A stretch of DNA of 24,000 nt from an uncultured Clostridiaceae bacterium (GTDB lineage Bacteria > Bacillota > Clostridia > Clostridiales > Clostridiaceae), in the NCBI GenBank assembly GCA_946405135.1, contig CAMJGD010000007.1:61580-85579 (forward strand), read 5' to 3'. The notes under the pieces were generated by a model. It was not told the origin of the DNA. It ran no database searches and saw nothing but the letters and a program-made list of their open reading frames with translations. Made by a program: the position numbers and the translations under genes. Below, piece after piece: positions 1,015-23,389 of the stretch. Every line of letters starts with the position of its first letter. The stretch's first letter is position 1.

Positions 1015-1035
1015 GAAAGAAAGCAGGAACCTTTT

Positions 1036-2151: not shown

Positions 2152-2153
2152 AT

Positions 2154-2175
2154 AAAAGGCGAAAGCCTTTTTTTT
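2154..2175 (+). terminator. Weak intrinsic terminator after the ROK gene
   Basis: AAAAGGC-GAAA-GCCTTTT hairpin with a GNRA loop, followed by a T-run, immediately after the stop at 2151. The stem is short, with only 3 G-C pairs. Confidence 0.45.
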
Positions 2176-2179
2176 AGTA

Positions 2180-2207
2180 TTGACATATAAATAAAAAAGA
2201 GTAATAA
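2180..2207 (+). promoter_or_regulatory. Candidate sigmaA promoter of the dehydrogenase-fructokinase operon
   Basis: Consensus -35 TTGACA (2180-2185), a 16-nt spacer, then the -10-like TAATAA (2202-2207). Confidence 0.45.
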
Positions 2208-2209
2208 TA

Positions 2210-2245
2210 AAAATACTTTAATAAAAAGTTTTATAAAAGTATTTT
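2210..2245. promoter_or_regulatory. 36-bp near-perfect palindrome, candidate operator
   Basis: AAAATACTTTAATAAAA-AG-TTTTATAAAAGTATTTT. The arms are 17 bp with one mismatch. It lies between the putative promoter and the RBS of the dehydrogenase gene. Confidence 0.5.
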
Positions 2246-2271
2246 ATAATGTATGGTAAAGGAGAATAGAT

Positions 2272-3300
2272 ATGTTACAGCAGATTATGACAGCGCCAGG
2301 GAAAATTGAATTTCGAGAGATACCAGTGCCAGAGATTAATTCAAATCAGGTATTAATTAAGATTAAGGAAATTGGTATATGTGGTTCTGATATTCATGTA
2401 TATCATGGAAAGCATCCTTTTACTTCCTATCCTGTAACTCAAGGGCATGAAGCTTCTGGTGAAATTGTAAAAGTAGGATCAGAGGTTACAAATTTTAAGG
2501 AAGGTCAAAAGGTAACTATTCAGCCTCAAGTGGTATGCGAAAAATGCTATCCATGCCGTCATGGAAAATATAATCTTTGTGAAGAGTTAAAGGTAATGGG
2601 TTTTCAGACAACAGGAGTTGCATCACACTATTTTGCAGTAGATGTAGAAAAGGTAACTGCTTTGCCTGAAGGTATGACTTTAGAAGAAGGAGCCATGATT
2701 GAACCTCTTGCAGTTGCAGTTCATGGAGTAAAGCAGGCAGGAGATGTACATGGATTAAACATTATTGTATTAGGTGCAGGACCAATTGGGAATTTGGTAG
2801 CTCAAACAGCTAAAGGTATGGGAGCAGCAGCAGTAATGATTACTGATGTAAGTGATCTTCGTTTACAAAAGGCAAGAGAATGTGGTATAGATTATTGCAT
2901 TAATACAAATGAAAAGGATTTAGGAGAAGCTATTATAGAAGCCTTTGGCCCTGATAAAGCAGATATTATCTATGATTGTGCCGGAAACAATATTACAATG
3001 GGACAGGCAATTAAGTATGCTAGAAAAGGAAGTACTATTATTTTGGTAGCTGTTTTTGCTGGTATGGCCACTATTGATCTAGCAGTCGCAAATGACCATG
3101 AATTAGATATTAAGAGTACTATGATGTATCGTAATGAGGATTACATTGATGGAATTAAGCTAGTAAATGAAAAAAAGGTACAGTTACTACCACTTCTTTC
3201 TAAAAAGTTTCCATTTAAAGAATATTTACAAGCATATCAATATATTGATAACAACAGGGAAGCTACAATGAAGGTAATGATTGAGGTTCAGGAGGACTAA
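2272..3300 (+). CDS. Zn-dependent medium-chain dehydrogenase, sorbitol/L-iditol 2-dehydrogenase-like
   Basis: 342 aa. MDR motifs are GICGSDIH, GHEASGEIV, the structural-Zn cluster CEKCYPCRHGKYNLC and the Rossmann motif VLGAGPIGN. AAAGGAG RBS. Confidence 0.85.
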   Translation: MLQQIMTAPGKIEFREIPVPEINSNQVLIKIKEIGICGSDIHVYHGKHPFTSYPVTQGHEASGEIVKVGSEVTNFKEGQKVTIQPQVVCEKCYPCRHGKYNLCEELKVMGFQTTGVASHYFAVDVEKVTALPEGMTLEEGAMIEPLAVAVHGVKQAGDVHGLNIIVLGAGPIGNLVAQTAKGMGAAAVMITDVSDLRLQKARECGIDYCINTNEKDLGEAIIEAFGPDKADIIYDCAGNNITMGQAIKYARKGSTIILVAVFAGMATIDLAVANDHELDIKSTMMYRNEDYIDGIKLVNEKKVQLLPLLSKKFPFKEYLQAYQYIDNNREATMKVMIEVQED

Positions 3301-3304
3301 AACT

Positions 3305-4264
3305 ATGAAATATGATGTAGTAGCTTTGGGAGAGCTTTTAATAGATTTTACTCCAAACGGAGTAAGTTCTCAAGGAAATACTGTATTTGAGGCAAATCCT
3401 GGCGGGGCACCTTGTAATGTACTATCTATGCTCTGTAAATTCGGAAAGAAAACCGCTTTTATAGGAAAGCTGGGCAATGATATGTTTGGACAAATGCTTA
3501 AAGATACCATAAGTGAGATAGGAATAGAAACAAAAGCAGTAACAATGTCAAAGGATGTTAATACAACACTTGCTTTTGTTAAAATTGATGAACAGGGAGA
3601 GAGAAGTTTTGCATTTTATCGTAACCCTGGAGCAGATATGAGATTAACAGAAGAAGAAGTAGATGAATCAATAATTCAGGATGCAAAAATTTTTCATTTT
3701 GGAACGCTGTCTATGACACATGAAGGCGTTAGAAAGGCTACTAAGAAAGCAATTGACATAGCAAAGAAAAATAAGAAGCTAATTTCCTTTGATCCCAATC
3801 TTCGTCCACCTCTTTGGAATAATTTAGATGAGGCGCGAGAACAGATAGAATATGGCTGTTCAGTATGTGATATTCTAAAAATTGAAGATCAGGAACTTAA
3901 GTTTTTGACAGGAAAAGAGACAATTGAAGAAGGGGTGGAAAATCTAAAGGAAGATTATAATATTTCTCTTATTATGGTTACTGCAGGCATTGATGGAAGC
4001 TATGCTTTTTATAAAGAAAATAAAGTATATAAGCCTGCTTTTGTAACAGAAAAGACAATCGATACAACAGGTGCAGGAGATACATTTTGTGGCTGTAGTC
4101 TAGCTTATATTTTAGAGCATGGTCTAGATGGGTTAGAAAGATGTGAGCTAGAGGAAATGCTGACTTTTGCTAATGCGGCAGCTTCTATTGTAACAACTAG
4201 AAAAGGGGCTATAAAATCTATGCCTGAAATAGAAGAAGTAAAAGCGTGGATTAAATGTTTTTAA
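3305..4264 (+). CDS. PfkB-family carbohydrate kinase (fructokinase-like)
   Basis: PfkB signatures GGAPCNV, DPNLRPPLW and DTTGAGDTFCG. I prefer ATG 3305 (MKYDVVALGELLIDF), which lies 9 nt after GGAGG (3291-3295), over the TTG at 3281 in the ORF track. Confidence 0.85.
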   Translation: MKYDVVALGELLIDFTPNGVSSQGNTVFEANPGGAPCNVLSMLCKFGKKTAFIGKLGNDMFGQMLKDTISEIGIETKAVTMSKDVNTTLAFVKIDEQGERSFAFYRNPGADMRLTEEEVDESIIQDAKIFHFGTLSMTHEGVRKATKKAIDIAKKNKKLISFDPNLRPPLWNNLDEAREQIEYGCSVCDILKIEDQELKFLTGKETIEEGVENLKEDYNISLIMVTAGIDGSYAFYKENKVYKPAFVTEKTIDTTGAGDTFCGCSLAYILEHGLDGLERCELEEMLTFANAAASIVTTRKGAIKSMPEIEEVKAWIKCF

Positions 4265-5198: not shown

Positions 5199-5618
5199 AT
5201 GGTTTTATTTAATACTGTTGAAGAAAAAGTATCTTATGTAAAGGCACTACTATATATAGCAAGCCTTGATGAAAAAGTTGATGATAGTGAGGTAGAGGCA
5301 TTAAATAGTATTTGCAGGCTATACAATATTCCTGAAGAATACTATGCCGATATATGGAATAGTGTTAATGGCAGCTCAGATATCAAAAAAATATTAGAAC
5401 CCATAGTAGAAAGAAATATAAAACTTATGCTTATAAATGATTTAATATCACTTTGCTTTGCTGATGGCAGATATACAGATGTAGAGAAAAAAGGTATAAG
5501 AAATATATCAAAATTGTTAAATATAGAGGAAAGCAAAGTGCTTGAATTTGAAGCTATAATGGAGGAAAATATTCTCCTTAGGAAAAAGCTTTTTAATGCT
5601 TTGGAATGGGAGGGATAA
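5199..5618 (+). CDS. TerB-like (tellurite-resistance TerB / DjlA-N fold) domain protein
   Basis: 139 aa. It has the two-fold helical repeat pattern typical of TerB (LLYIASLDEKVDDSEVEALNSICRLYNI ... LISLCFADGRYTDVEKKGIRNISKLLNI). AAAGGAG RBS. The stop at 5616-5618 is 2 nt before the next start. Confidence 0.7.
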   Translation: MVLFNTVEEKVSYVKALLYIASLDEKVDDSEVEALNSICRLYNIPEEYYADIWNSVNGSSDIKKILEPIVERNIKLMLINDLISLCFADGRYTDVEKKGIRNISKLLNIEESKVLEFEAIMEENILLRKKLFNALEWEG

Positions 5619-5620
5619 AG

Positions 5621-6127
5621 ATGAATTTTAAAAAAGTGGCTTTGATTGCAGGAGCAGGTGTGGCTTGTGTAGTAACAGGCGGAATGGCAGCACCAGCTAT
5701 AGGAGCAGCCATAGGTTCTACTTTCATGGGATTATCAGGTGCTGCAGCAACTTCAGCAGGATTAGCAGCATTAGGTGGAGGCTCTTTAGCAGCCGGAGGT
5801 GCTGGAATGGCTGGTGGCACAGCTGTGGTTTCAGCAATAGCAGGTGGTGTAGGTGCTGCCGGTGCTGCCACTGCAAGTTCTATAGTAGAAGGCAATAAAG
5901 CAAAAGAAGATTTAAAAAAAGCACAAGATGATTTACATGAAATACAAAAAAAAGATGCAGCAAAACAAAAGATAATTATGATTCTTGAAAAGAAACTTAA
6001 AGTGGCTGAGTTAAATTATGAAATACTGAGAGAAGATGCAGAGGCTACAAAAGAACAATTGGATGAAGCTCAAAGCCAGATAAAATATATTTTAAATGAA
6101 TTAGAGAAGGCAAAATTAAATGCTTGA
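5621..6127 (+). CDS. Gly/Ala-rich glycine-zipper membrane protein with C-terminal coiled coil
   Basis: I prefer ATG 5621 (MNFKKVALIAGAG...), 6 nt after GGGAGGG, over 5606. Residues about 6-89 are almost only G/A/S/V/I/L/T/M with repeated GxxxG/AxxxG spacing. Residues about 92-168 are a K/E/Q/L-rich heptad-like coiled coil. Confidence 0.7.
   Translation: MNFKKVALIAGAGVACVVTGGMAAPAIGAAIGSTFMGLSGAAATSAGLAALGGGSLAAGGAGMAGGTAVVSAIAGGVGAAGAATASSIVEGNKAKEDLKKAQDDLHEIQKKDAAKQKIIMILEKKLKVAELNYEILREDAEATKEQLDEAQSQIKYILNELEKAKLNA
5636..5887 (+). repeat. Low-complexity GCN/GGN codon tract (locally GC-rich)
   Basis: Degenerate repetition of GCA/GCT/GGT/GGA codons encodes the Gly/Ala region. It is visibly more GC-rich than the flanks and generates long shadow ORFs in other frames (5593-5895 on the - strand, 5665-5898 on the + strand). 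Confidence 0.6.
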
Positions 6128-7517
6128 TAAAGACGTAATAATTTTAAAAAATCAAAAAGATAGAATAGATTTGCTTGAAGGAAAAATGGAACAGGTTACC
6201 TATGCTATCTCTGAAAACAAAAATAAGGTAAATGAAATCAAAAGTGATATTGAAAAAATATATGAACTTACAGGAATAAAACCTTATTCCTGTAGTTCTA
6301 AGCCATCTAAACCTAGTTATGACAATAGAGAAATCTCTGTGGAAGATACAGATTATAATACTCTATATGAAGAATCTAAAATTGCTTTAAAAAATAATGA
6401 GATTGATATTTATAATTTAACTTACGAGGATTTGCTAGAACCAAATGTCATTAGAGAAATTGAAGAACAATTAAACAGACCTGTGGAAAGAAGAGAAAAA
6501 TGGAGCAATGATGATAAAGTCATTGTAATAGCAGCTGTAATAGTAGGATCAATAGCAGATATGGTTTTTAGCAATAGAACAAATAAATTAACTGGGTCAG
6601 GATATAAAGCAAAAATAACTGATGGTGGATGGGAGTTTCAGAAAAGTCAAGATTCTAATTTTTCAAGGTGGCTTAATAATTTTCATATACATGATAAAGG
6701 CTCACCTATAGATTTTCAAGGCAAGGATTTTGGAGGTGGACTTCATAGGCAGCTTTCGAAAGGCCATGATTTGTTTAGAGCCATTGAAACTATTATTAAT
6801 ATAAAAAATGGAAGATTTGAAGGAGTAGTATATAGGAATGGTGTTGCTACAAAAGTAGTAGAATATTCTAATCAGTATGGAACTCCATATAATACTATGT
6901 CAACCATTGAAGCTATAGGAAACTATTTAAAACATATGAAGGGTGATTTTTTTTCTACACATAGCTTACCTATTCCAGGATATTCATTTTTTAGAGAAGC
7001 TTCAAACAGAGATTTAAGAATTTTTTCTGCAAATATGTATAAAGCAGGATTTAATCTAAAGAATGTGGCTATTCAGGGAATATCAACATTATCAATAGAA
7101 TTGATATTAAGAATTTACATGGCAGTTAAGGAAACAGAAAGGATAAAGCAGGAAGGTAAGTCTTTTAATATATTAGAGGACTATTCTAATATAGATAATA
7201 TTAAATCTGTAATTAATTCAGCAGCAAATCCAAAGTATAGAGAAATGTTTCTTTTAGCACATTCATTGGTTACTGCAGTTAACATAGGAAAAGTTATAAT
7301 AAAAAAGGCACCTTGGGAAATAAATATAACGGAAATTATAATGACAGTAAGGTACTTCATACCATTTATAAAAGACTATTTATATAGAAATTCTACACAG
7401 GCAATATTGGATAGAAATACTGCAGAAATTATTACAGAATGGGAAGATATGCTTATGAGGTTTGAGGATTATGACAAAGGTATACCTATGCCTAATAAAG
7501 TATTAATAATTGAATAG
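6120..7517 (+). CDS. Hypothetical 465-aa protein (N-terminal coiled coil, Ser/Pro linker, hydrophobic segment, conserved-looking His/Asp motif region, helical C-terminus)
   Basis: The start ATG 6120 overlaps the upstream stop (ATGCTTGA). GAGAAGG RBS. Hydrophobic segment VIVIAAVIVGSIADMVF (nt 6519-6569). Polar motif HIHDKGSPIDFQGKDFGGGLHRQLSKGHD (nt 6684-6770). I see no P-loop or other familiar catalytic signature. Confidence 0.75.
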   Translation: MLDKDVIILKNQKDRIDLLEGKMEQVTYAISENKNKVNEIKSDIEKIYELTGIKPYSCSSKPSKPSYDNREISVEDTDYNTLYEESKIALKNNEIDIYNLTYEDLLEPNVIREIEEQLNRPVERREKWSNDDKVIVIAAVIVGSIADMVFSNRTNKLTGSGYKAKITDGGWEFQKSQDSNFSRWLNNFHIHDKGSPIDFQGKDFGGGLHRQLSKGHDLFRAIETIINIKNGRFEGVVYRNGVATKVVEYSNQYGTPYNTMSTIEAIGNYLKHMKGDFFSTHSLPIPGYSFFREASNRDLRIFSANMYKAGFNLKNVAIQGISTLSIELILRIYMAVKETERIKQEGKSFNILEDYSNIDNIKSVINSAANPKYREMFLLAHSLVTAVNIGKVIIKKAPWEINITEIIMTVRYFIPFIKDYLYRNSTQAILDRNTAEIITEWEDMLMRFEDYDKGIPMPNKVLIIE

Positions 7518-11654: not shown

Positions 11655-11686
11655 AGAAGAATCGTTTTTGAAGCGATTCTTTTTTA
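11655..11686 (+). terminator. Intrinsic terminator
   Basis: Stem AAGAATCG / CGATTCTT with a 9-nt loop, followed by a T-run. Confidence 0.7.
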
Positions 11687-11792
11687 TATAATATCTATTA
11701 AAGTAGTATACTAATTATTTTATAAAATAATTTTAATATACTAGTGTATAATTGATGTTATTAAAATATAAATTAGGAAAGGGGAAAATGGA

Positions 11793-13154
11793 ATGACAAA
11801 TTTTAAACTAGAGTCTGAAAAATATGGAAAGGAATTTTTGAAACTTTTAGAGCAGTGGGTAAGCATTCCATCGGTATATGATGAAAGTACTATAAGCGAA
11901 AAAGCACCTTTTGGTAGTGAAATAGCAAAAGCATTAAACTGGTTTACTGATTTAGGTAAAAAAGATGGCTTTATCACTAAAAATATTGATGGATATGCAG
12001 CGCATATAGAGTATGGTGAGGGAGATGAATATATCTATGTTTTTGGTCATTGTGATGTGGTGCCACCAGGAGAATACTGGACAAGCAATCCCTTTAAGCT
12101 TTTAAAAAAAGATGATGTGCTTATAGGTAGAGGAGTAGTAGATGATAAGGGACCTGTTCTTGCAAGTTATTTAGCTTTAAAATTAATAAATGATAATAAT
12201 ATAAAGTTAAAAAGAAAAGTTAGGATAGTGGCGGGAGGGAATGAAGAGAGCGGATTTAAATGTATTAAGCACTATTTTTCAAAAGAGCCTAAACCACTTT
12301 ATGGATTTACTCCAGATGCTAAGTTTTCAGTTATAAATGGTGAAAAAGGAGCAGCTATTATTAATATTAGTAAAAAAATTGATAACGATATTGTAATTAT
12401 AGGCGGCGAAGTTCATAATACAATTCCAAATTTTGTTACAATTAAAGGATATGATATAAATATTAAAGATGATTATATAAAAAATTTTTTAAGTAAGGAA
12501 AAGCTTATATTAGAATATGTTGAAAGTGAAAAATCTTATAAATTAGTAGGCATAGGTGGACATTCTTCTAAACCTGAAAAATCTAATAATCCTATAGAAA
12601 AAGTGCTAAAGCTATTAAGTGGTATAATTAACGAACCTTGGATTAATGAACTTAATTGTATGTTTAATGGAGATAACAGAAATGGTGAACTATTTGGAAT
12701 TAATATAAAAGGTAAGTGTGGCAATCTTATATTAGTTCCTACCATAATAGCAGTTGAAAATAGAGAAATGAAACTTACATTAAGTGTTAGGTATCCTGAA
12801 AATATCAATGTAAAAGAAATAGAAAACAAAATTAAGAGTTTTCATCATATGCGAGGCTATGATGTGGAAATAAAAAATATTAAAAGGCCTAATTATATAC
12901 CAGAAGAGTCCATTTTGGTAAAAACACTTTATGATATATATGTAAAACATACTGGAGATATAAGCAACAAAGTAAGAATAACTAGTGCGGGGACTTATGC
13001 TGCCATGATGAATAATTCAGTGATATTTGGAGGAGAATTTCCAGATGGTTCTTCAGGAAACACGCACATGGCTGATGAGTATGGAAGTTATGATAAATTT
13101 ATTAAATGTATAGGAATTTATGCAGAAGCTCTGTATGCACTTTCTTATCTTTAA
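11793..13154 (+). CDS. pepV: M20-family dipeptidase PepV (Sapep/Xaa-His dipeptidase type)
   Basis: 453 aa. Motifs are GHCDVVPPG, GRGVVDDKGP, GGNEESG and a C-terminal NTHMADE. AGGAAAGGGG RBS. Confidence 0.85.
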   Translation: MTNFKLESEKYGKEFLKLLEQWVSIPSVYDESTISEKAPFGSEIAKALNWFTDLGKKDGFITKNIDGYAAHIEYGEGDEYIYVFGHCDVVPPGEYWTSNPFKLLKKDDVLIGRGVVDDKGPVLASYLALKLINDNNIKLKRKVRIVAGGNEESGFKCIKHYFSKEPKPLYGFTPDAKFSVINGEKGAAIINISKKIDNDIVIIGGEVHNTIPNFVTIKGYDINIKDDYIKNFLSKEKLILEYVESEKSYKLVGIGGHSSKPEKSNNPIEKVLKLLSGIINEPWINELNCMFNGDNRNGELFGINIKGKCGNLILVPTIIAVENREMKLTLSVRYPENINVKEIENKIKSFHHMRGYDVEIKNIKRPNYIPEESILVKTLYDIYVKHTGDISNKVRITSAGTYAAMMNNSVIFGGEFPDGSSGNTHMADEYGSYDKFIKCIGIYAEALYALSYL

Positions 13155-13227
13155 TAAATAGTGGCACTTAAGGGGACATTTATTATATACACATGGTTTA
13201 AGAAAATGTTTACAATACATATATAGG

Positions 13228-15141
13228 ATGGTGTATGGAATGATAAGTAAGAAACATTCTATAATAATAAGATGTCTTGTTGATAAGACAGGATACATTA
13301 CAGCAGAAGAATTAAGCAGGCATGTTGGTGTATCAGTTAGAACAATAAAAAGATATATATCAGATATAAACTATTTTCTCAAGAATTTTGGCTCAGAAAT
13401 TGTTTCAGTAAAGGGTATTGGATATAAGTTAGAAGGTCCTAGTAAGGAAATTATGAAAGTTGATGAAGAGGCTCGTAAAATTATAGAAGGCTTTAGGGTT
13501 GATGATTCATTAGAAGGTAGGATTACAAAAGTAATTTGTATTTTATTAAACAATGAATATGTAAGTACAGATGAAATTAGTGAAAAGCTAAATATTAGTT
13601 TATCAAGCACAAATAATCTTATTGCTAGTGTAAAAGATGTATTAAATAATTATGAACTAAAAATAGTGTCAAAACCTTTCCATGGAAGTAAAGTAGTGGG
13701 TGAGGAAAATAAAATAAGATCTCTTATATTGGATTATGCAATAAAAATTGATGAAAATCATTATATTCTTGTAAGGCTAAATAATATATCTAGAAAAGAA
13801 ATTAATCTTATGGAAGATATTATTACTAATTCTTTAAAGGACAACAATATAATAATATCTGATAAAGATTTTAATTCATTACTTATTAGAATTATAGTCT
13901 CAATATCTAGAGTAAGAGCTGGAAATATAATAGATAAAAACGCCTTTCAAGATAGTTATAGGTTTCATAACTATGAGTTAGTAAAAGATATGATGAAAAA
14001 TATAAGTGGCTTATTGAACATTAAACTTGTAGAAAATGAAGTTTTATATGTTTCATCTAGTTGTGGTTTGATTATGTATAATTATAATACTAGAAAAGAG
14101 CTTATTAAAAATTCTAAGGATGAGATAAATAGTTTTGTATATGGAGCTTTAAAAGATATAAATTTAATTACTGGTATTGATTTTATAGAAGATACAGATT
14201 TTACAAATGCATTAATTATGCACTTGAAAATTTTTATTAATAGGTATAAAGCTGGTGTGGTTGCAGATAATCCGCTTTTAAATCAAATAAAAAGCAAGTT
14301 TCCTGTAGAAACAAATCTTGCTACTATAATAGCAAAAAAACTTAAGGAAGAATTTCAAGCAACTCTAGATGAAGATGAAATTGGATTTATAGCCATGCAT
14401 TTTGGAGCTGCTTTTGAAAGAAGAAAAGGGAAAAGAGGTAAGAAGGTATGTATAATTTGTCATTATGGAATAGGTACTTCTCAATTATTATCAGAAAAAC
14501 TAAAGCAGAGGATTAGCGACATAAGTATAGTTGGAATTTACCCAGTAAGATATTTAGATATTGCCTTAAAACAGGATATTGATTTTATAGTGTCTACAGT
14601 AAAGCTAGATATAAAAACTCTTAAGGTACCAGTTTTATATATTGAAAATGTGTTTTCAGATGAAATAATTAATAAGTTATATCAAGCTTTTAATGAGAAA
14701 GACCAAAGAAGAAAAATTCTAAAAGATACTTTTAATAGTAAGGCATTTTTTTATATTAAAGCAAAAACCGCAGAAGAAGCTATAAAAGAAGTTGGACAAG
14801 CAATGAAATCTAAAGGATTTATTAATGATAAAGTTATAGACATGGTATTGGAGAGAGAAAAGATGTCTTCTACTGATATTGGCAACTTAGTAGCTATACC
14901 TCACACTATTTTAGAAGGAGCTTATAAATCTATAATTGGTGTAGGTGTACTAGAAAAACCAATTAAATGGAACAAGGAAGAAGTTCAATTAGTATTCATG
15001 GTGTGTTTCAATAGAAATGAAAGCTATAACTTTCCTGTATTTAAATATTTATATAATTTTATTGAAGATGAAAATGATGTCCGAAGTGCTTTAAAAGATT
15101 TTAGCTTTAATAAGCTAATGAAAATAATGGATGTAAAATAG
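13228..15141 (+). CDS. PRD-domain PTS regulator (HTH - PRD - PRD - EIIB-like - EIIA-like; MtlR/LicR class)
   Basis: 637 aa. N-terminal HTH (ITAEELSRHVGVSVRTIKRYISDIN), PRD regions, an EIIB-like Cys loop (VCIICHYGIGTSQLL) and a C-terminal EIIA(Mtl/Fru)-like region with VAIPHT. An alternative start exists at ATG 13240. Confidence 0.85.
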   Translation: MVYGMISKKHSIIIRCLVDKTGYITAEELSRHVGVSVRTIKRYISDINYFLKNFGSEIVSVKGIGYKLEGPSKEIMKVDEEARKIIEGFRVDDSLEGRITKVICILLNNEYVSTDEISEKLNISLSSTNNLIASVKDVLNNYELKIVSKPFHGSKVVGEENKIRSLILDYAIKIDENHYILVRLNNISRKEINLMEDIITNSLKDNNIIISDKDFNSLLIRIIVSISRVRAGNIIDKNAFQDSYRFHNYELVKDMMKNISGLLNIKLVENEVLYVSSSCGLIMYNYNTRKELIKNSKDEINSFVYGALKDINLITGIDFIEDTDFTNALIMHLKIFINRYKAGVVADNPLLNQIKSKFPVETNLATIIAKKLKEEFQATLDEDEIGFIAMHFGAAFERRKGKRGKKVCIICHYGIGTSQLLSEKLKQRISDISIVGIYPVRYLDIALKQDIDFIVSTVKLDIKTLKVPVLYIENVFSDEIINKLYQAFNEKDQRRKILKDTFNSKAFFYIKAKTAEEAIKEVGQAMKSKGFINDKVIDMVLEREKMSSTDIGNLVAIPHTILEGAYKSIIGVGVLEKPIKWNKEEVQLVFMVCFNRNESYNFPVFKYLYNFIEDENDVRSALKDFSFNKLMKIMDVK

Positions 15142-15153
15142 AGGGAGAAAATT

Positions 15154-15609
15154 ATGAGTGATGTATTTGCAAGAGAATATATAAAAATAAATGTAGAATT
15201 AAAGGATAAAAATGAATATCTTAAATATATTGCTAGGTTATCTGTGGACTTAGGTATTGGAAAAGAAGAACAAGGTGTTTACCAGGGGCTTTTAGATAGA
15301 GAAAAAGAATTTGAGACTAATCTTGGAGATGGAATAGCTATACCACATACAAAATCTAATTTTATTTTAAAACCAGCAGTGATTGTTATCAAACCTAAAA
15401 CTGAAGTTTTTTGGGGAGGGGATAGTGATGAAGGCATAAAAATAATTTTAAGTCTTTTAAGTCCAAATGAACAAGGAGGTAATACTCATTTAAAACTCTT
15501 GGCAAGTTTATCAAGAAAACTTATAGATGAAAAATTTAAAAAGAAATTAGTGAGTACATTAAATAAAGAAGAGATTTTTATAATGCTTGAAAATGCTTTA
15601 AATAGCTAA
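15154..15609 (+). CDS. PTS EIIA component, fructose/mannitol (EIIA-2) family
   Basis: 151 aa. Phosphorylatable His motif GDGIAIPHTKS. GAGGGAG RBS. Confidence 0.85.
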   Translation: MSDVFAREYIKINVELKDKNEYLKYIARLSVDLGIGKEEQGVYQGLLDREKEFETNLGDGIAIPHTKSNFILKPAVIVIKPKTEVFWGGDSDEGIKIILSLLSPNEQGGNTHLKLLASLSRKLIDEKFKKKLVSTLNKEEIFIMLENALNS

Positions 15610-15641
15610 TTAATAAATAAATTATAAAAGGAGGATCATGT

Positions 15642-15959
15642 ATGGGTAAAAAGTTAGTTGCAATTTGTGCATGTCCAATGGGGTTGGCTCACACATTTAT
15701 GGCTGCAGAAGCAATAAAAAAAGCTGCTTTAGAAATGGGATATGAGGTAAAAGTTGAGACTCAGGGAGCAGATGGAATTCAAAATGAATTAACTGCATCA
15801 GACATTGAAAAAGCAGATATAATACTTCATGCTATAGCTGTTACGCCTTCAGGAATAGAAAGATTTGAAGGCTTTGAGATTTATGAAGTTGGTTTGCAGG
15901 AAGTAATAAAGAACCCAAAAGGAGTGATAAAAGAAATAGAAGAAGATTTAGCACAATAG
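15642..15959 (+). CDS. PTS EIIB component, fructose-like family
   Basis: 105 aa. N-terminal active-site Cys loop VAICACPMGLAHTFMAAEA. AAAGGAGG RBS. Confidence 0.85.
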   Translation: MGKKLVAICACPMGLAHTFMAAEAIKKAALEMGYEVKVETQGADGIQNELTASDIEKADIILHAIAVTPSGIERFEGFEIYEVGLQEVIKNPKGVIKEIEEDLAQ

Positions 15960-15964
15960 AAAAA

Positions 15965-15997
15965 GCTCCTTAATCTATACTGCAATATAGAAGGAGC
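15965..15997 (+). other. Interrupted hairpin in the unusually long EIIB-EIIC spacer
   Basis: GCTCCTT...CTATA-N6-TATAG.AAGGAGC. No T-run follows on the + strand, so it is not a canonical terminator. Confidence 0.35.
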
Positions 15998-16082
15998 AAA
16001 GAAAAATAACCTATATATAATAATATAACATTTTTATTAAATAATCTAGCAAAAAATAATAATTTTGTGATGGAGGGTAAAA

Positions 16083-17324
16083 ATGGCAGTTAAGAAAAAA
16101 GTAGTTGGTTCAGCTACATCTAAAAATAATGGGAATAATACTATAGAAAATAAAACCGTATCTACTAATACATCGGCATGGACAGAATTTAGTAAACATG
16201 TAATGACTGGAATATCTTACATGATCCCAGTGCTTATAATGGGAGGACTAATTGGAGCTATTTCTCAACTTATACCATATGTGTTTCTAAAAATAGATCC
16301 TTCTGTATCTATAATAGATGCTATGAATACAGGAAATTATATAGGAACTAGTTTTACTATGCTTAAATTAGCAAGTTTGATGGAAAACTTTGGATTCACA
16401 TTATTTAGTTTTGCTATACCTTTATTTGCAGCGTTCACTGCTAATTCTATAGGCGGGAAAAATGCACTTGCAGCAGGTTTTATAGGAGGTTATGTTGCCA
16501 TTAAGCCTATAGCAAGGGTAGTAATGGAAGAAGGTAAATGGATAACTAAGTCACCAGTTCCTTCCGGATTTTTAGGAGCAATATTAATAGCTTTTATTAT
16601 AGGATATTTTGTAAAATGGTTAAATAAGAAAATTAATTTACCACATAATTGGCTTGCATTTAAGACTACATTTTTAATTCCACTTATTTCTGCTTTATTT
16701 TGTATGATTTTAATGGTTTTTGTAATTACACCTTTCGGAGGATGGTTAAATGGACTTATTAAAAGTTTACTTCAAGCAGCAGGAAATACAGGACAATATG
16801 TTTATGCATTAGTATTATCAGCTACTACAGCTTTTGATTTAGGAGGACCAGTTAATAAAGCAGCAGGTTTTGTAGCACTTGGGTTTACTACTGAAAAAGT
16901 GCTACCAATAACAGCAAGATGTTTATCTATAGTTATACCTTCCTTTGGATTAGGATTAAGTACTTTGATAGATAAAAAGTTGGTTGGGAGAAGAGTTTAT
17001 GATAAGCAATTTTATCAAGCAGGAAAGACTGCAATATTTTTAGCCTTTATGGGAATTTCAGAAGGATCCATTCCTTTTGCTCTTGAAAGACCTTCTTTCT
17101 GTATTCCATTATATGTTTCAGGCTCAATTGTCGGTTCTATGACAGCTATTGCATTAGGTGCAGTTCAGTGGTTCCCAGAGTCAGCTATATGGGCATGGCC
17201 TTTGGTAAAAAATATTATTCCTTATATAATTGGGCTAATAGTAGGAGCAATATTTATTGCAGTTATTAATGTTCTTCATAGAAATAAACTTATAAAAGAT
17301 GGCAAATTAGTAGTAAATGAATAA
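16083..17324 (+). CDS. PTS EIIC permease, fructose-like family
   Basis: 413 aa and polytopic. It has the EIIC-Fru-like HVMTGISYMIPVLIMGG entry motif and about 9-10 TM segments. A hydrophilic N-terminal extension of about 35 aa is present. Strong GGAGGG RBS. Confidence 0.85.
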   Translation: MAVKKKVVGSATSKNNGNNTIENKTVSTNTSAWTEFSKHVMTGISYMIPVLIMGGLIGAISQLIPYVFLKIDPSVSIIDAMNTGNYIGTSFTMLKLASLMENFGFTLFSFAIPLFAAFTANSIGGKNALAAGFIGGYVAIKPIARVVMEEGKWITKSPVPSGFLGAILIAFIIGYFVKWLNKKINLPHNWLAFKTTFLIPLISALFCMILMVFVITPFGGWLNGLIKSLLQAAGNTGQYVYALVLSATTAFDLGGPVNKAAGFVALGFTTEKVLPITARCLSIVIPSFGLGLSTLIDKKLVGRRVYDKQFYQAGKTAIFLAFMGISEGSIPFALERPSFCIPLYVSGSIVGSMTAIALGAVQWFPESAIWAWPLVKNIIPYIIGLIVGAIFIAVINVLHRNKLIKDGKLVVNE

Positions 17325-17335
17325 TTCTAAACTAA

Positions 17336-17366
17336 AGAGAACTGATAGAAATCAGTTCTCTGTTTT
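17336..17366 (+). terminator. Intra-operon hairpin, possible partial terminator or attenuator or mRNA stabiliser
   Basis: Perfect 11-bp stem AGAGAACTGAT / ATCAGTTCTCT with an AGAA loop, followed by GTTTT. It sits 12 nt after the EIIC stop and 16 nt before the peptidase ATG. Confidence 0.5.
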
Positions 17367-17381
17367 ATAAGGAGAAAAATT

Positions 17382-18452
17382 ATGCAATTTGTTAAAAGAA
17401 TTGAGAAATTAATAGATGAATATATGGTAAATAGGATTGATGGTATTCTTATATCTAGCCCTGAAAATAAGTTCTATTTAGGAGGATTATACAGTAGTTC
17501 TGGATATACTTTAATAACGAAGTTAAATAAGTATATAATTGTAGATTATAGATATTTTGAAGAAGTTAAAGGCAGGGAAGATTTATTTCAAATTAAATTA
17601 CTTTCTGAAAAAACTACTTTGATAGATATTCTGAATAGTATAATCAGAACAGAAAATTTAAGTTGTTTAGGTTTTGAAGGAAAAGAAATTTCCTATGATT
17701 TTTATAAATGTCTTAAAGAAAATCTTAATTGTGCATTAACATCAGTTGATTTATCTGATATTAGAGCTATTAAAGATGGAGATGAAATAAAGAATATCAA
17801 GATAGCTTGCAATATTGCAGATAAGGCTTTTTATCACATAACTAAATTTATAAAGTTAGGTATGAAGGAAAAAGATATAGAAAATGAACTGGTTAGATTT
17901 ATTAAAGAAGAGGGAGGACAGAAGGAATCATTTGATATTATTGTGGCTTCAGGCATAAGAGGAGCACTGCCCCATGGAAAAGCAAGTAATAAGAGGATTA
18001 ATAAAGGGGAGTTCATCACTCTAGATTTTGGTGTTAGATATAAAAATTATTGTTCTGATATAACTAGAACTTTAGCTTTGGGACAATGCTCAAGTGAGCT
18101 TCTAAAAATATATGAAGTGGTAAAAATTGCTGGAGAAGAAGCAATAAAGCTTGCAAAGCCTAATGTAAGATTAGGAGAACTTGACGATATAGCTAGAAAA
18201 GTTATTAAGGATTCAGGCTATGGAGATTATTTTAGACATAATTTGGGACACGGATTAGGAATTTTAGTACATGAATATCCTTCAGTAGCACCAGGTGCTA
18301 ATGAAAAGTTAAAAGAAGGAATGGTAATAACTATTGAACCGGGTATATATATATCAAAACTTGGAGGAGTAAGAATAGAAGAGGATATATTAATAACCGA
18401 CCATGGTTGCAAAAAACTTACTAAAAGTACAAGAGATTTAATAATAATATAG
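17382..18452 (+). CDS. M24B-family Xaa-Pro peptidase (PepP/PepQ/YpdF-like)
   Basis: 356 aa. Creatinase-like N-domain plus pita-bread metal ligand motifs (DFGVRYKNYCSDITRT, HNLGHGLGILVHEYP, ITIEPGIY, VRIEEDILIT). Confidence 0.85.
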   Translation: MQFVKRIEKLIDEYMVNRIDGILISSPENKFYLGGLYSSSGYTLITKLNKYIIVDYRYFEEVKGREDLFQIKLLSEKTTLIDILNSIIRTENLSCLGFEGKEISYDFYKCLKENLNCALTSVDLSDIRAIKDGDEIKNIKIACNIADKAFYHITKFIKLGMKEKDIENELVRFIKEEGGQKESFDIIVASGIRGALPHGKASNKRINKGEFITLDFGVRYKNYCSDITRTLALGQCSSELLKIYEVVKIAGEEAIKLAKPNVRLGELDDIARKVIKDSGYGDYFRHNLGHGLGILVHEYPSVAPGANEKLKEGMVITIEPGIYISKLGGVRIEEDILITDHGCKKLTKSTRDLIII

Positions 18453-18463
18453 GAGCAGATAAA

Positions 18464-19642
18464 ATGTATAATTTTAATGAAAAACCAGATAGGATAAGTG
18501 AAAAGTGCAGGAAATGGGATAAAAAAATCATAGAAGAAAATTTTGGTGAAGTGCCTCAGGATTTTATACCTATGTGGATTGCTGATATGGATTTTAAAGT
18601 ACCTAAGGAAATAGAAGAATCTTTTTGCGAAGTGGTATCTAGAGGTGTATTTGGTTATACTTATTGTTACGATGAATTTTATAAAGCAGTTATAGACTGG
18701 CAATACAGTATGCATCAAGCAAAGGTAGAAAAAGAATGGATAACTTTATCCTACGGTACAGTATCTACTATTCATTATATTATCCAGTCATTTTGTAAAA
18801 GTGGAGATTACGTGATAATGAATACCCCAGTATATGATCCTTTTGACGCAGCAGCTAGTAGGCAAGGAGTAAATAGAATATATAATACATTAGCTATAAA
18901 AGATGGTAGATATTATATTGATTTTGAAAATTTAAAAAATCAATTAATGGAATTCAAACCTAAATTATATTTATTTTGCTCACCTCATAATCCTTCAGGA
19001 AGAGTGTGGAGTATAGAAGAGTTAGCTAAAGTTTCAAGGATTTGCAAAGAAAATGGTACTATATTGGTGGTAGATGAGGTTCATGCTGAGCATATACATT
19101 ATGAAAATTTTACTTCGATCCTTAACATTAAAGATTACAAGGATAATATAATATTGCTTACTTCTCCTAATAAAGCGTTTAATCTTGGAGGATTAAAAAC
19201 GTCATATTCAATTATAGCTAATGAGAAGATAAGAAATATCTTCAGAGATAAACTTAAGCAGAATTCTATAACTTCTCCTAATGTTTTTGGTATAATAGGG
19301 CTAATAACAGCTTACAATGAAGGAAGAATTTGGATTAAAGAAGTAAGCTCATATGTGAAAGGTAATTATGAGCTTTTAGAGGGTTATATAAAAAACAATA
19401 TTCCAAAATTAAAAATTATGAAAATGGAAGCTTCCTACTTAGCTTGGGTAGATATTAGGGATACAAAAATGTCTTCTGAGGATATAACAAATTATCTATC
19501 TTCCAAGGCAGGGGTATTAGTAGAAAGTGGTACACATTTTGTAAAAGATGGAGAAGGATATATTAGGATTAATTTAGGTACTCAGAGAGAAAATGTTTTA
19601 GAAGCTCTTAAGAGAATTGATAAAGCTTTAAATATCAAGTAA
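18464..19642 (+). CDS. PLP-dependent C-S lyase / aminotransferase class I-II, MalY/PatB family
   Basis: 392 aa. MalY/PatB-like N-terminus (KWDKK...IPMWIADMDFKVP), CSPHNPSGRVW, and the PLP-lysine motif SPNKAFNLGGLK. Confidence 0.85.
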   Translation: MYNFNEKPDRISEKCRKWDKKIIEENFGEVPQDFIPMWIADMDFKVPKEIEESFCEVVSRGVFGYTYCYDEFYKAVIDWQYSMHQAKVEKEWITLSYGTVSTIHYIIQSFCKSGDYVIMNTPVYDPFDAAASRQGVNRIYNTLAIKDGRYYIDFENLKNQLMEFKPKLYLFCSPHNPSGRVWSIEELAKVSRICKENGTILVVDEVHAEHIHYENFTSILNIKDYKDNIILLTSPNKAFNLGGLKTSYSIIANEKIRNIFRDKLKQNSITSPNVFGIIGLITAYNEGRIWIKEVSSYVKGNYELLEGYIKNNIPKLKIMKMEASYLAWVDIRDTKMSSEDITNYLSSKAGVLVESGTHFVKDGEGYIRINLGTQRENVLEALKRIDKALNIK

Positions 19643-19666
19643 CTTAGAATTTTATTTTCATAGATG

Positions 19667-19710
19667 AAGCTGAATAATCGGTACGATATCTGATTGTTCA
19701 GCTTTTTTTT
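19667..19710 (+). terminator. Intrinsic terminator ending the PTS-peptidase-lyase operon
   Basis: 13-bp stem AAGCTGAATAATC / GATTGTTCAGCTT with one G-U pair, followed by T8. Confidence 0.8.
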
Positions 19711-19780
19711 ACTTTAATTTCTTCCAAAATATTTACTCGATACTATGTGCATTTTGGCTATTATTCATATATTACAAAAC

Positions 19781-19828
19781 AATATTTCAACATTTTATTT
19801 TATTTTTAAAATAAAATGTTGAAATATT
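19781..19828. promoter_or_regulatory. Perfect 21-bp inverted repeat (6-nt spacer), candidate MurR/RpiR operator
   Basis: AATATTTCAACATTTTATTTT-ATTTTT-AAAATAAAATGTTGAAATATT. The right arm contains the -35 hexamer of the murP promoter. Confidence 0.6.
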
Positions 19829-19846
19829 ATTTTAAAGGTATATAAT
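19819..19846 (+). promoter_or_regulatory. Candidate sigmaA promoter of murP-mupG-murQ
   Basis: -35 TTGAAA (19819-19824), a 16-nt spacer, then consensus -10 TATAAT (19841-19846). Confidence 0.55.
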
Positions 19847-19936: not shown

Positions 19937-21292
19937 ATGGCAAATTCAAACATTACTCCGGAAGTCCTTGCTAATCAGATTATAAAAAATTTGGGCGGCA
20001 AAGATAACTTAGCATCTGTGGCTTATTGTATGACAAGACTTAGAGTTGTTGCTCATGATAATGAAAAGGTTAACAAAAAGGCCATCAAAGAAACAGAAGG
20101 AGTTCTTGGTCTTGTTGAACAGGATGATCAGCTTCAAATAATTTTAGGACCAGGAAGAGTTACAAAGGTTGCTCAAGAGGTAGCTAAAATTACAGGATTA
20201 AGTCTTGGTGAAGTGGATGAAGCAGAAATTAGAAAGGCAGAAATTAAAGCTAAAAATGACACTTCATTTAAAAGATTACTTAAAAAAATATCCAATGTAT
20301 TTATACCATTAATTCCCGCATTTATAGCTTGTGGTCTTGTTATGGGAATTAATAACATGATAGTTAAAGCAAACCCTGATTTTGCGAAGAGCTTAACAGG
20401 AGGAATATTCGGAATCATAGGTAGTGCAGTATTTTATGGTTTAAATCTTTTTGTAGGTGTTAATGCAGCTAAAGAATTTGGCGGTTCACCAATGCTTGGT
20501 GGTACAATGGCAGCAATTATTACAATGCCAGCTCTTGCAAACATAACTATGAGTGGAAAACCACTTGTACCAGGAAGAGGCGGAGTAATAGCAGTTCTTC
20601 TTGTAGTAGCATTTTCAAGCTGGCTTGAAAATAAGATAAGAAAGATAATACCAGAAGTTCTTGATCTATTTATAACACCACTTTTAACTGTTTTAATTTC
20701 TGGCTTTGTTGCAATTTTTGTACTTCAACCTTTGGGAGGACTTATTTCAGATTCAATAGGAAGTGCAGTTAAAGTTGCAATCAAAGACGGTGGAGGATTT
20801 ACTGGATTTATTCTTGGAGGAACATTCCTTCCACTAGTTATGACTGGATTACATCAAGGATTAACTCCAATTCATGCAGATCTTTTAAAGACTACAGGTG
20901 AAAACCTTCTTCTTCCTATACTTGCTATGGCAGGAGCAGGACAAGTTGGAGCATCTATTGCGGTACTTGCTAAGACAAAGAATAAGAGACTTAAAAAGAC
21001 AATAGCATCAGCTCTTCCAGTTGGAATATTAGGAGTTGGAGAGCCACTTATATATGGTGTAACTCTTCCTCTTGGAAAACCATTCATCGGAGCATGTATA
21101 GGAGGAGCTTTTGGTGGAGCATTTAATGCGGCAATGAAGGTTGCATGTTTAAGTATGGGACTTTCAGGACTTCCCTTGGCAGCACTTATAAAACCAGGTA
21201 AGATAGGTTACTACCTTATAGGTGTTCTTGTTGCTTATGTAGCAGGATTTATAGCAACCTATATAATGGGATTTGAAGACCCAGTTGAATGA
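19937..21292 (+). CDS. murP: PTS EIIBC component, N-acetylmuramic acid-specific (MurP-like, glucose superfamily)
   Basis: 451 aa. N-terminal EIIB-Glc Cys motif AYCMTRLRV followed by a polytopic EIIC. The specificity call rests on context with mupG, murQ and murR. GGAGGGG RBS. Confidence 0.8.
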   Translation: MANSNITPEVLANQIIKNLGGKDNLASVAYCMTRLRVVAHDNEKVNKKAIKETEGVLGLVEQDDQLQIILGPGRVTKVAQEVAKITGLSLGEVDEAEIRKAEIKAKNDTSFKRLLKKISNVFIPLIPAFIACGLVMGINNMIVKANPDFAKSLTGGIFGIIGSAVFYGLNLFVGVNAAKEFGGSPMLGGTMAAIITMPALANITMSGKPLVPGRGGVIAVLLVVAFSSWLENKIRKIIPEVLDLFITPLLTVLISGFVAIFVLQPLGGLISDSIGSAVKVAIKDGGGFTGFILGGTFLPLVMTGLHQGLTPIHADLLKTTGENLLLPILAMAGAGQVGASIAVLAKTKNKRLKKTIASALPVGILGVGEPLIYGVTLPLGKPFIGACIGGAFGGAFNAAMKVACLSMGLSGLPLAALIKPGKIGYYLIGVLVAYVAGFIATYIMGFEDPVE

Positions 21293-21298
21293 TGACAA

Positions 21299-21332
21299 AA
21301 AAGGAGAATTGGGGAATTCCCAGTCTCCTTTT
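21299..21332 (+). terminator. Hairpin after murP, possible leaky terminator or processing site
   Basis: AAAAGGAGA ... TCTCCTTTT 9-bp outer stem with an inner GGGAATTCCC palindrome. The tail TTTTAACTTT is only partly T-rich. The next gene starts 36 nt later, so read-through must occur. Confidence 0.45.
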
Positions 21333-21367
21333 AACTTTAATTACAATAAATAAAGTAGGTGATTTTT

Positions 21368-22447
21368 ATGTCTAAAGGAATATCTGTTTATTTAGGGCTT
21401 GGTCAAAGCATTGAAGAAAATTTAGATTATATTGATAAAGCTAGTAAATATGGTTTTGATAATATTTTTACATCCCTTCATATTCCAGAGGCAGATTACA
21501 GCAAGCTTATAAGTGAATTTAATGCAATAGTTGAATATTCCAATAGTAAAGGGATGAAGATTACTGCGGATGTATCTCCAAGAACCTATAAATATTTAGG
21601 CGGAGAGGAAAATGACTTTAAATTATTAAAAGAACTTGGAATCTCTTGTGTCAGGGTAGATTTTGGTTTTTCTCCCCGTGAAATTGCGGAATTTACTAAG
21701 AATCCTTATGGCATAAAAATAGAGATAAATGGAAGTACAGTTACAGAAAAGTTTCTAAAAGAATTTGAACAGTATGAACCTAACTATGAGAATATACAGG
21801 CATGTCATAATTATTATCCGAGAAAGAATACAGGAATTTCTTTAAAAACCTTTCAATATAAAAATGAGCTTTTAAGAAAGTATGGAATGAAAATTTCAGC
21901 GTTTATTCCTTCAATTACTAATAGAAGAGGACCTGTTTTTGAAGGGCTTCCTACACTTGAAATTCACAGGAATATGAATTCAGTAGTTTCTGCAAAACAT
22001 TTATTTGCCTTAGGCATTGATAATGTAATATTTGGTGATCCATTTGTGGATGAAGAAATACTTCAAGTAGTTGGAAAGATGGATGAACAGATTATAAATT
22101 TTAGAATAGATATTTACACTGAGAATGAAATAGAAAAGAAAATAATATTCAAGAAAGTTCACATAGAAAGACCGGATCAGGCAGAGGATGTTATAAGATC
22201 TACTTCCTCAAGAGAAGAACTAGATAAAGATTCAGTTATAAATCCACATAACAATGTTGACAGAGCAAAAGGATTTATAACTATTGACAATAAAGATTAT
22301 CTTAGGTATGCAGGGGAGCTAGAAATATGTAAAAAATGTCTTCCTGCAGATAAAAGAGTAAATGTAGTAGGAAAAATAGTTGATGAAGAAATATTTTTAA
22401 TGGACTATATAAAAGAAGAAGGAAAATTTAGTTTTGAAGCATATTAA
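21368..22447 (+). CDS. mupG: DUF871-family protein, 6-phospho-N-acetylmuramidase MupG-like
   Basis: About 359 aa. DUF871-like N-terminus (GISVYLG...YGFDNIFTSLHIPE) and position between murP and murQ, as in the Firmicute MurNAc-GlcNAc recycling operon. I prefer ATG 21368, 6 nt after AGGTGA, over GTG 21359. Confidence 0.75.
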   Translation: MSKGISVYLGLGQSIEENLDYIDKASKYGFDNIFTSLHIPEADYSKLISEFNAIVEYSNSKGMKITADVSPRTYKYLGGEENDFKLLKELGISCVRVDFGFSPREIAEFTKNPYGIKIEINGSTVTEKFLKEFEQYEPNYENIQACHNYYPRKNTGISLKTFQYKNELLRKYGMKISAFIPSITNRRGPVFEGLPTLEIHRNMNSVVSAKHLFALGIDNVIFGDPFVDEEILQVVGKMDEQIINFRIDIYTENEIEKKIIFKKVHIERPDQAEDVIRSTSSREELDKDSVINPHNNVDRAKGFITIDNKDYLRYAGELEICKKCLPADKRVNVVGKIVDEEIFLMDYIKEEGKFSFEAY

Positions 22448-22468
22448 TATTTGCAGGAGGTAATTAAG

Positions 22469-23389
22469 ATGAACTTAGAAAAGCTTTCACAATTAGTTAC
22501 TGAAGGAAGAAATCCAGATAGTTTAAATTTAGATAAGTTAGAGACAGTGGATATGTTAAGACTTATCAACAATGAAGACAAAAAAGTAGCTTTTGCTGTG
22601 GAAAAGTCTTTAGAGGATATTGCAAAAGCTGTTGATGTAATAGCAGAAAATATTAAAAATGGCGGAAGACTTATTTATATGGGAGCAGGTACCAGCGGAA
22701 GGCTTGGAATAGTTGACGCTTCAGAATGTCCTCCTACCTTTGGAGTAGATGCAGAGCTTATACAGGGAATGATCGCAGGAGGACATGGTGCTATTTTTAA
22801 AGCAGTAGAAGGTGCAGAGGATAGTGCTGAACTTGGTGAAAAGGATCTTATGGATAAAAATTTAAAATCTTTTGATGTTGTATGTGGAATTGCAGCTTCA
22901 GGCAGAACACCTTATGTATTAGGTGGAATGAGATATGCAAAAGAGATTGGATGTCCTACTATTTCTGTAACTATGAACCCTGATTCTGAGATGGCAAAAG
23001 TTGCGGATTATCCTATAAGTGTGGTAGTAGGGCCAGAAGTTTTAATGGGCTCCACTAGAATGAAAGCAGGTACAGCACAAAAAATGGTTTTAAATATGCT
23101 TACTACAGGTACTATGGTTAAGCTTGGAAAAGTATACAGCAATCTTATGGTAGATGTTAAGGCAAGCAATGAAAAGCTTGTGGCAAGGGCAAAAAGAATA
23201 GTTATGCTTGCTACAGGTGTAGATGAAAGTATTGCTGCTGAATATTTAAATGAAACAAATTTTGATGTAAAATTAAGCATATTCATGATAATATCTAGAT
23301 TAAGTAAAGACAAGGCAAAGGATATATTAGATAAAAACCATGGATATATTCAAAAGGCACTTGATTATTTACAAGAAGAAAATCAATAG
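22469..23389 (+). CDS. murQ: N-acetylmuramic acid 6-phosphate etherase
   Basis: SIS-domain etherase with LVTEGRN near the N-terminus, [11 protein letters not shown] and ECPPTFG. I prefer ATG 22469, 8 nt after AGGAGG, over TTG 22451. Confidence 0.9.

Follow-up and report, generated by a model that had tools for sequence, protein, structure and literature searches.

A Fry-type phosphotransferase locus with peptidase and PatB-family lyase partners in a Clostridiaceae genome: a candidate system for alpha-mannosyl amino acids or peptides

What is taken up by a fructose-family phosphotransferase system (PTS) whose genes lie among those for peptidases and a lyase? This question is raised by a locus of an uncultured Clostridiaceae bacterium (assembly GCA_946405135.1, contig CAMJGD010000007.1, positions 61,580–85,579; this stretch of 24,000 nucleotides is referred to as the window). 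Seven open reading frames (ORFs), all located on the plus strand at 11793–19642, encode a PepV-type dipeptidase, a PRD regulator, separate EIIA, EIIB, and EIIC, an M24B aminopeptidase, and a PatB-family lyase. The genes, families, order, and terminator listed in the initial annotation were all recovered at their positions. Its statement that no kinase, aldolase, or isomerase is present was upheld for the genes of the block, among which a deglycase and a glycosidase are absent too. None of the seven proteins lacks its catalytic or phospho-acceptor residues. The arrangement is not a matter of chance, since an identical gene order was seen in another 14 loci, which belong to Clostridiaceae, Sporomusaceae, Thermotaleaceae, Tissierellales, and Peptostreptococcaceae. 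Our preferred answer, still a tentative one, is that the system takes up and 6-phosphorylates an alpha-mannosyl amino acid or peptide, which would be trimmed by the peptidases before PatB released mannose-6-phosphate by beta-elimination.

The EIIC protein shares 54% identity over its full length with the fryC product of Escherichia coli K-12 and 69% with CD2486 of Clostridioides difficile. It forms one clade with FryC (support 100) against three outgroup EIICs. The likeness to E. coli fry pointed out in the initial annotation is orthology, beyond resemblance. EIIB and EIIC exceed the cut-offs of their profiles; EIIA scores 100.8 bits at a cut-off of 103.5. With the MngA equivalog profile, EIIC scores 119 bits, under the cut-off of 763, and solved structures matching EIIC were not found. 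The PRD regulator possesses the residues H332, H391, C412, and H559. The host genome is that of a low-GC member of the Bacillota, and the nearest relatives of its EIIC are clostridial. The distribution of the EIIC clade is patchy: it was present in 5 of 39 scored relatives, and a phylum sample of 400 genomes yielded no further member and only one MngA-like relative. The linkage of the genes, which the initial annotation had proposed to check in relatives, is kept across Bacillota, Fusobacteriota, Mycoplasmatota, and Enterobacterales.

Partner genes were surveyed in 81 loci of the EIIC clade; as close relatives are among them, the tree carries more weight than the numbers. Peptidases and/or PatB accompany the transporter in 59 loci and a GH38 glycosidase in 21 (two of these split), while one locus is cut off. 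The partner sets of the former are M24 and M42 (28 loci); PepV and M24 (6); PepV, M24, and PatB (15); M24, M42, and PatB (5); M24 and PatB (2); and PatB alone (3). GH38 was found together with the peptidase/lyase set in none of them, and 11 further loci agree. The GH38 proteins of the clade are MngB-like, scoring 756 bits with the mannosylglycerate hydrolase model, which is under its cut-off; MngB acts on 6-phospho-mannosylglycerate. Two of the three outgroup EIICs are also GH38-linked, one of them being an MngA-like IIABC. A locus with an MngA-like IIABC (L132:1202-7650) combines it with GH38 and a sucrose-phosphorylase-like GH13 gene and is a candidate mannosyl/glucosyl-glycerate locus.

On the EIIC tree, the two types of loci are intermingled. 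A topology that holds the peptidase type together as one clade was rejected by the approximately unbiased (AU) test (p-AU 0.013; quick tree, LG+G4), for which the groups were named after the first tree had been seen; quick trees and FastTree were used. Well-supported branches require two or more switches of the partner label, and parsimony counts four. The clearest swap occurs within the Leptotrichiaceae (Fusobacteriota), where the order is regulator-IIA-IIB-IIC-PatB in Streptobacillus versus regulator-IIA-IIB-IIC-GH38 in Pseudoleptotrichia; the two EIICs are sisters (support 97) with 72–76% identity. As many as 124 EIIC positions are common to both types, and none separates them cleanly. Residue 285 was considered as a specificity switch and rejected: Thr occupies it in all 21 GH38 loci and also in three peptidase loci, and two further GH38-linked EIICs have Ile. 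Peptidase and other genes beside two GH38 loci (M18 in L156; M20, PALP, and RidA in L010) are set apart by terminator-like hairpins and were not counted. In a Proteiniclasticum locus (L016:10571-11845), an IS110-like transposase gene lies between those of EIIC and GH38.

For a cargo of one EIIC clade that could be cleaved by an alpha-mannosidase in some loci and by a pyridoxal-phosphate (PLP)-dependent beta-lyase with aminopeptidases in others, the alpha-mannoside of a beta-substituted amino acid is the simplest candidate. Import of a sugar–amino acid or sugar–peptide conjugate, as proposed in the initial annotation, thus remains the best reading. A broader and more doubtful proposal would make the whole Fry clade a family of PTS transporters dedicated to O-mannosyl amino acids or glycopeptides, in which the PatB clade would act as a phosphoglycosyl-amino acid beta-lyase that stands in for the glycosidase by eliminating mannose-6-phosphate. 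No kinase, of the 1-phosphofructokinase type or other, recurs among the operons of the 81 loci. Three unrelated lineages of mannose-6-phosphate isomerase (32–39% identical) adjoin peptidase-type loci, which points to mannose-6-phosphate as the product. One such isomerase gene lies 43 nt behind PatB and is followed by a terminator; a separate promoter is possible for the isomerase gene of Geosporobacter. A RidA gene comes after that of the lyase in one Mycoplasmatales locus.

The lyase exceeds the cut-off of TIGR04350 (355.5 versus 340 bits), its AlphaFold model supports the predicted fold (TM score 0.94 to 6QP3), and the PLP-binding and catalytic residues Y65, Y124, N176, D204, H207, K237, and R368 are intact. 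It belongs to a fry-linked PatB clade (support 100) with 44–74% identity inside; identity does not exceed 42% with other clostridial PatBs and, for the window protein, is 25–30% with enterobacterial MalY/PatB. Lyases of this clade are encoded behind EIIC in 23 loci; the remaining 2 of the 25 lyase-bearing loci use a MalY-like lyase, and these two group with the enterobacterial malX-linked ones. The notion that the locus merges fry with malX-malY was accordingly abandoned. R16, Y97, H104, K245, and T270 are invariant in the fry-linked clade, and its pocket-region residues differ invariantly from those of other PatBs. The specificity of Staphylococcus hominis PatB was retuned through an N-terminal segment (PMC7385124), into which R16 maps approximately; this would suit a phosphate.

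A regulatory role of the MalY-like protein had been offered as an alternative. That PatB serves chiefly in regulation, or is a cystathionine lyase with a housekeeping function and present here by position, would agree with the regulatory complex of E. coli MalY named in PDB entry 8BOB and with the fact that the operon PatB is the sole member of its family in the host genome. We regard it as very improbable, since the lyase falls outside the MalY clade, the same clade recurs behind EIIC in other loci, its pocket region is invariantly distinct, no catalytic residue is lost, and a PRD regulator is already encoded in the locus; moreover, Caloramator (G033) keeps a separate, ordinary PatB besides the fry-linked one. 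In the same genome, the locus is present a second time in degenerate form (G033:C1:722000-742000), with intact M24 and PatB genes, a broken pepV, and a transposase-like gene in place of the regulator and PTS genes. Some enterobacterial PatB-family genes (L144, L145, and L146) lie directly behind that of a large membrane transporter, and two of their products (L144 and L145) have Trp at the conserved His207 position.

The peptidases also belong to PTS-linked lineages. PepV retains the metal- and carboxylate-binding residues H87/D89, D118, E151/E152, D175, H425, and R333 and scores 363.7 bits with TIGR01887 (cut-off, 208), while the PepV equivalog cut-offs are missed. Its PTS-linked clade (support 100; invariant K177, K260, R395, and E415) shares at most 35% identity with unlinked PepVs. 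The best structure match of the M24 protein is YpdF (5CNX; E 7e-92), and its score with the hidden Markov model is 349 bits, under the equivalog cut-off of 393. The fry-linked M24 proteins, including YpdF, form one clade (support 90; FastTree), in which K181 and N287 are nearly invariant. More distant PepV and M24 paralogs are kept by the host, with a housekeeping PepV paralog on contig C19.

These peptidases are also central to another reading, according to which a different sugar–amino acid conjugate is split directly by peptidase or lyase. The substrate could be an amino sugar that bears an aminoacyl group in amide linkage, such as the Cys-glucosamine formed when bacillithiol or mycothiol is turned over, or else a peptide with an S-glycosylated cysteine; the peptidases would free the sugar-phosphate or a Cys conjugate, and PatB would cut the C-S bond. 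Such a substrate accounts for the peptidase-only loci and for M24 as the most constant partner, C-S cleavage is proven PatB chemistry (PMC7385124), and the model of Cys-Gly-conjugate dipeptidase matches the window PepV with E 2e-66, although far under its cut-off. It leaves unexplained the interchange with GH38 under a near-identical EIIC, the PatB-only loci, and the recruitment of isomerases, and we consider it rather unlikely, though the strongest of the rivals. The Cys or thioether conjugate named in the initial annotation is possible but agrees less well with what GH38 and the isomerases indicate.

The initial annotation described one co-directional block. The common strand stands, but a co-directional block need not be one transcript, and a single transcript is doubtful here. 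A 17-bp imperfect inverted repeat starts 8 nt past the pepV stop codon and is followed by a weak -35 and a TACAAT element. Thirteen other loci have the repeat in the corresponding position, some of them outside the set used for building the matrix, and TACAAT or TATAAT is kept at the equivalent place in related loci. The window repeat is the top genome-wide match of a matrix built from other genomes. As two of 20 shuffled genomes reach its score somewhere, its significance comes from its position; the search pattern was picked after the window's own site had been seen, which makes the procedure mildly circular. The matrix scan detected no operator before pepV in the window, whereas a second copy occurs between the mannose-6-phosphate isomerase gene (pmi) and pepV in C. 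difficile, Romboutsia, and Clostridium CCUG 7971. A wider regulon was discarded, because the other matches in the host genome do not exceed 18 bits, the background level; none precedes the host pmi or GH38 gene. The genes from the regulator to PatB are probably a six-gene inducible unit, pepV being driven by a separate promoter, perhaps with some read-through. PepV is still a functional part of the system, since its clade occurs at these loci and moved together with EIIB, EIIC, and M24 into Rahnella. The hairpin between the EIIB and EIIC genes is a probable RNA-stability element, and that between the EIIC and M24 genes a probable stabilizer or leaky terminator.

In the tables of a C. difficile microarray study (PMC3510511), CD2484-2489 move together, with fold changes of 3–12 in the first contrast and 0.14–0.32 in the last (contrasts are identified here by column position only); the text of the study describes their induction by glucose as requiring CcpA, and CD2490 is not in the regulated gene set, unlike CD2484-2489. 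This induction would agree with a PTS that carries mannose itself, glucose or fructose being secondary substrates, or else a simple mannoside; peptidases and lyase would then be co-induced for accompanying peptides and sulfur amino acids, without acting on the molecule transported. The adjacency of isomerases, reminiscent of a ManP-ManA-like system, the lack of an operator before pepV, and the single PatB of the genome point the same way. We nevertheless judge this explanation unlikely, and somewhat more so than the direct splitting of a conjugate: the enzymes belong to PTS-linked clades apart from the housekeeping paralogs, PepV and M24 moved with the transporter between phyla (Rahnella), and both the exclusion of GH38 and the PatB/GH38 swap are left unexplained.

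Least credible, together with a regulatory PatB, is the glycated substrate considered in the initial annotation, i.e., a fructosyl-amino acid or -peptide of the Amadori type, which the peptidases would trim and a deglycase encoded elsewhere would finish. The fructose-family EIIC would fit, as would induction in medium with glucose and tryptone, where glycation could occur. However, no deglycase-like partner recurs in the 81 operons (the search covered operons, not the whole host genome), where the alternative partner is a GH38 glycosidase. Ketoamines are not cleaved by GH38 or PatB, and alpha-glycation blocks aminopeptidases and PLP binding.

For the preferred alpha-mannoside, the substrate would most simply be O-mannosyl-Ser(/Thr) and short peptides carrying it, derived from fungal or actinobacterial glycoproteins. 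The intact EIIA, EIIB, and EIIC would import it and phosphorylate C6 of mannose. In its presence, the PRD regulator would be dephosphorylated and activate the promoter behind the repeat at 13162–13178. The YpdF-type aminopeptidase and PepV-type dipeptidase would then trim the peptide to a glyco-amino acid with a free alpha-amino group, from which PatB would eliminate the phosphosugar, yielding mannose-6-phosphate, pyruvate, and ammonia. The isomerase encoded at C5:87459 of the host genome could lead the product into glycolysis; GH38-bearing members of the clade would reach the same product by hydrolysis. With this pathway, no sugar enzyme is needed in the operon. A GH38 gene (contig C46) and a FruA-like IIBC gene (C7, 132.7–134 kb) are located elsewhere in the genome.

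Partner exclusion, the MngB-like GH38, the interleaving and the swap, isomerase recruitment, the dedicated PTS-linked enzyme clades with their invariant basic residues, the RidA gene behind one lyase, and the precedents of an L. casei glyco-amino acid cluster and of the retuned S. hominis PatB speak for this pathway. Several points weigh against it. The main weakness is that the operon lacks a lyase gene in 34 of the 59 loci of the peptidase type, namely those of E. coli-type fry and of Rahnella, so that the sugar-releasing step must come in trans. A GH38 match is absent from two of the five lyase-less genomes searched (Rahnella and Salmonella arizonae); some MalY/PatB is encoded in all five, which fits but means little in so widespread a family. 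The most constant partner is M24 (56 loci) rather than PatB (25), and the host genome encodes no other PatB. The literature found documents no elimination of an O-glycoside by a PatB enzyme, and Thr conjugates are possibly poor substrates for beta-elimination. The fry-linked clades hold invariant acidic residues beside the basic ones. Isomerase adjacency fits plain mannose uptake too, and the CcpA-dependent glucose induction described for the C. difficile genes in the microarray study is unexpected for a specialist scavenging operon.

Table 1. Features of the fry-like locus and its boundaries (window coordinates)
Feature	Coordinates	Strand	Remarks
Terminator-like hairpin of upstream zinc-ribbon gene	11656..11690	+	12-pair stem, -11.8 kcal/mol, then T's; left block boundary
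PepV-type M20 dipeptidase	11793..13154	+	Sapep/PepV-type; TIGR01887 above cut-off
Candidate operator of the PRD regulator, inverted repeat	13162..13178	+	consensus TGTCAC-N5-GTGACA, imperfect; position kept in relatives
Candidate activator-dependent promoter for regulator-IIA-IIB-IIC-M24-PatB	13188..13216	+	poor -35; -10-like TACAAT at 13211-13216
MtlR/ManR/LicR-type regulator, HTH-Mga-PRD-PRD-EIIB-EIIA	13228..15141	+	true start probably 13240
EIIA, fructose/mannitol type (EIIA_2)	15154..15609	+	phospho-His65 present
EIIB, fructose family, FryB-like	15642..15959	+	phospho-Cys11 present; TIGR00829 above cut-off
EIIB-EIIC intergenic hairpin without T-run	15965..15997	+	-13.5 kcal/mol; found in some relatives
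EIIC, fructose family, FryC/CD2486 ortholog	16083..17324	+	TIGR01427 above cut-off
EIIC-M24 intergenic hairpin, 11 pairs	17336..17361	+	-15.3 kcal/mol; position kept in relatives
M24B aminopeptidase, YpdF clade, creatinase N-domain	17382..18452	+	metal ligands and Xaa-Pro motifs intact
PLP-dependent PatB-family beta-lyase, fry-linked clade	18464..19642	+	TIGR04350 above cut-off
Intrinsic terminator	19666..19712	+	16-pair stem 19666-19705 and T-run, -21.9 kcal/mol

Beyond the terminator, a separate operon at 19937–23389, preceded by a strong promoter match (19819–19846), encodes a MurP-like EIIBC, MupG, and, as its last gene, a MurQ-like etherase assigned by sequence similarity; these are functions of peptidoglycan recycling. 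A link to these genes was rejected, because the terminator separates them from the fry-like locus and they do not accompany it in other genomes. About 8 kb upstream, at 154–4264, a cluster of genes for AraC, a ROK-like regulator, a zinc-dependent dehydrogenase, and a PfkB-like kinase gives no sign of linkage to the locus. Three lineage-specific-looking ORFs at 5199–7517, coding for a TerB-like protein of 139 aa, a Gly/Ala-rich protein of 173 aa, and a protein of 465 aa of no recognized family, may be an acquired defence-like module.

The fry operon is present in 5415 of 5426, i.e., nearly all, complete E. coli genomes, and partner swapping makes the question of its substrate testable. If the pathway outlined above is true, a substrate would be assigned to this core operon of E. 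coli and to CD2484-2490 of C. difficile, gut and soil anaerobes would have a route for O-mannosylated protein debris, and PatB-family enzymes a new reaction. The literature searched gives no substrate for either locus, and both are catalogued as fructose-like PTS.

The E. coli operon fryB-fryC-ypdF-ypdE-fryA resembles the window locus in EIIC, in the YpdF-clade M24 gene directly 3' of it, in the separate EIIB, and in the lack of a sugar enzyme. It differs by the FryA fusion instead of a stand-alone EIIA, an AraC instead of a PRD regulator, and the M42 peptidase YpdE instead of PepV; PatB is added in the window. The closest counterpart, CD2484-CD2490 of C. difficile, has an identical seven-gene order with the operator before the regulator, and its PatB is 65% identical. 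Published annotations of CD2484-2489 and CD2491 match this order, and pepV is therefore CD2490. In C. difficile, pmi (CD2491) is adjacent and divergent and pepV has the second operator, whereas the pmi of the host genome of the window is encoded on a different contig. Enrichment in spores and up-regulation at an early stage of infection in mice are reported for the C. difficile locus (10.1101/598045). The Rahnella loci (L020, L024, L026-L029) have the order LacI-pepV-IIB-IIC-M24 and a clostridial-type EIIC, lack EIIA and PatB, and look like the result of horizontal transfer from Bacillota. An Enterobacteriaceae-type fry locus in a record titled Chryseobacterium (L064), near-identical to that of Scandinavium, is probable contamination or mislabelling.

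Among better-understood systems, MngA-MngB of E. coli likewise serves a mannoside of a small acid, 2-O-alpha-mannosyl-D-glycerate, by means of a fructose-family PTS, and the GH38 partners of the EIIC clade are MngB-like; the window operon differs in having no GH38. The alf-2 cluster of Lactobacillus casei for fucosyl-GlcNAc-Asn catabolism also handles a glyco-amino acid and includes both pepV and a gene for a PLP enzyme, but it uses a major facilitator superfamily permease instead of a PTS, together with a fucosidase, a glycosylasparaginase, and a kinase, and its pepV is dispensable (PMC6960285). In malX-malY of E. coli, a gene of the PatB/MalY family also follows a PTS gene; its lyase and S. 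hominis PatB belong to clades other than that of the window, and MalX is a glucose-family PTS. The window locus is thus a Gram-positive variant of the Fry system, neither the same operon as E. coli fry nor a fusion of fry with malXY.

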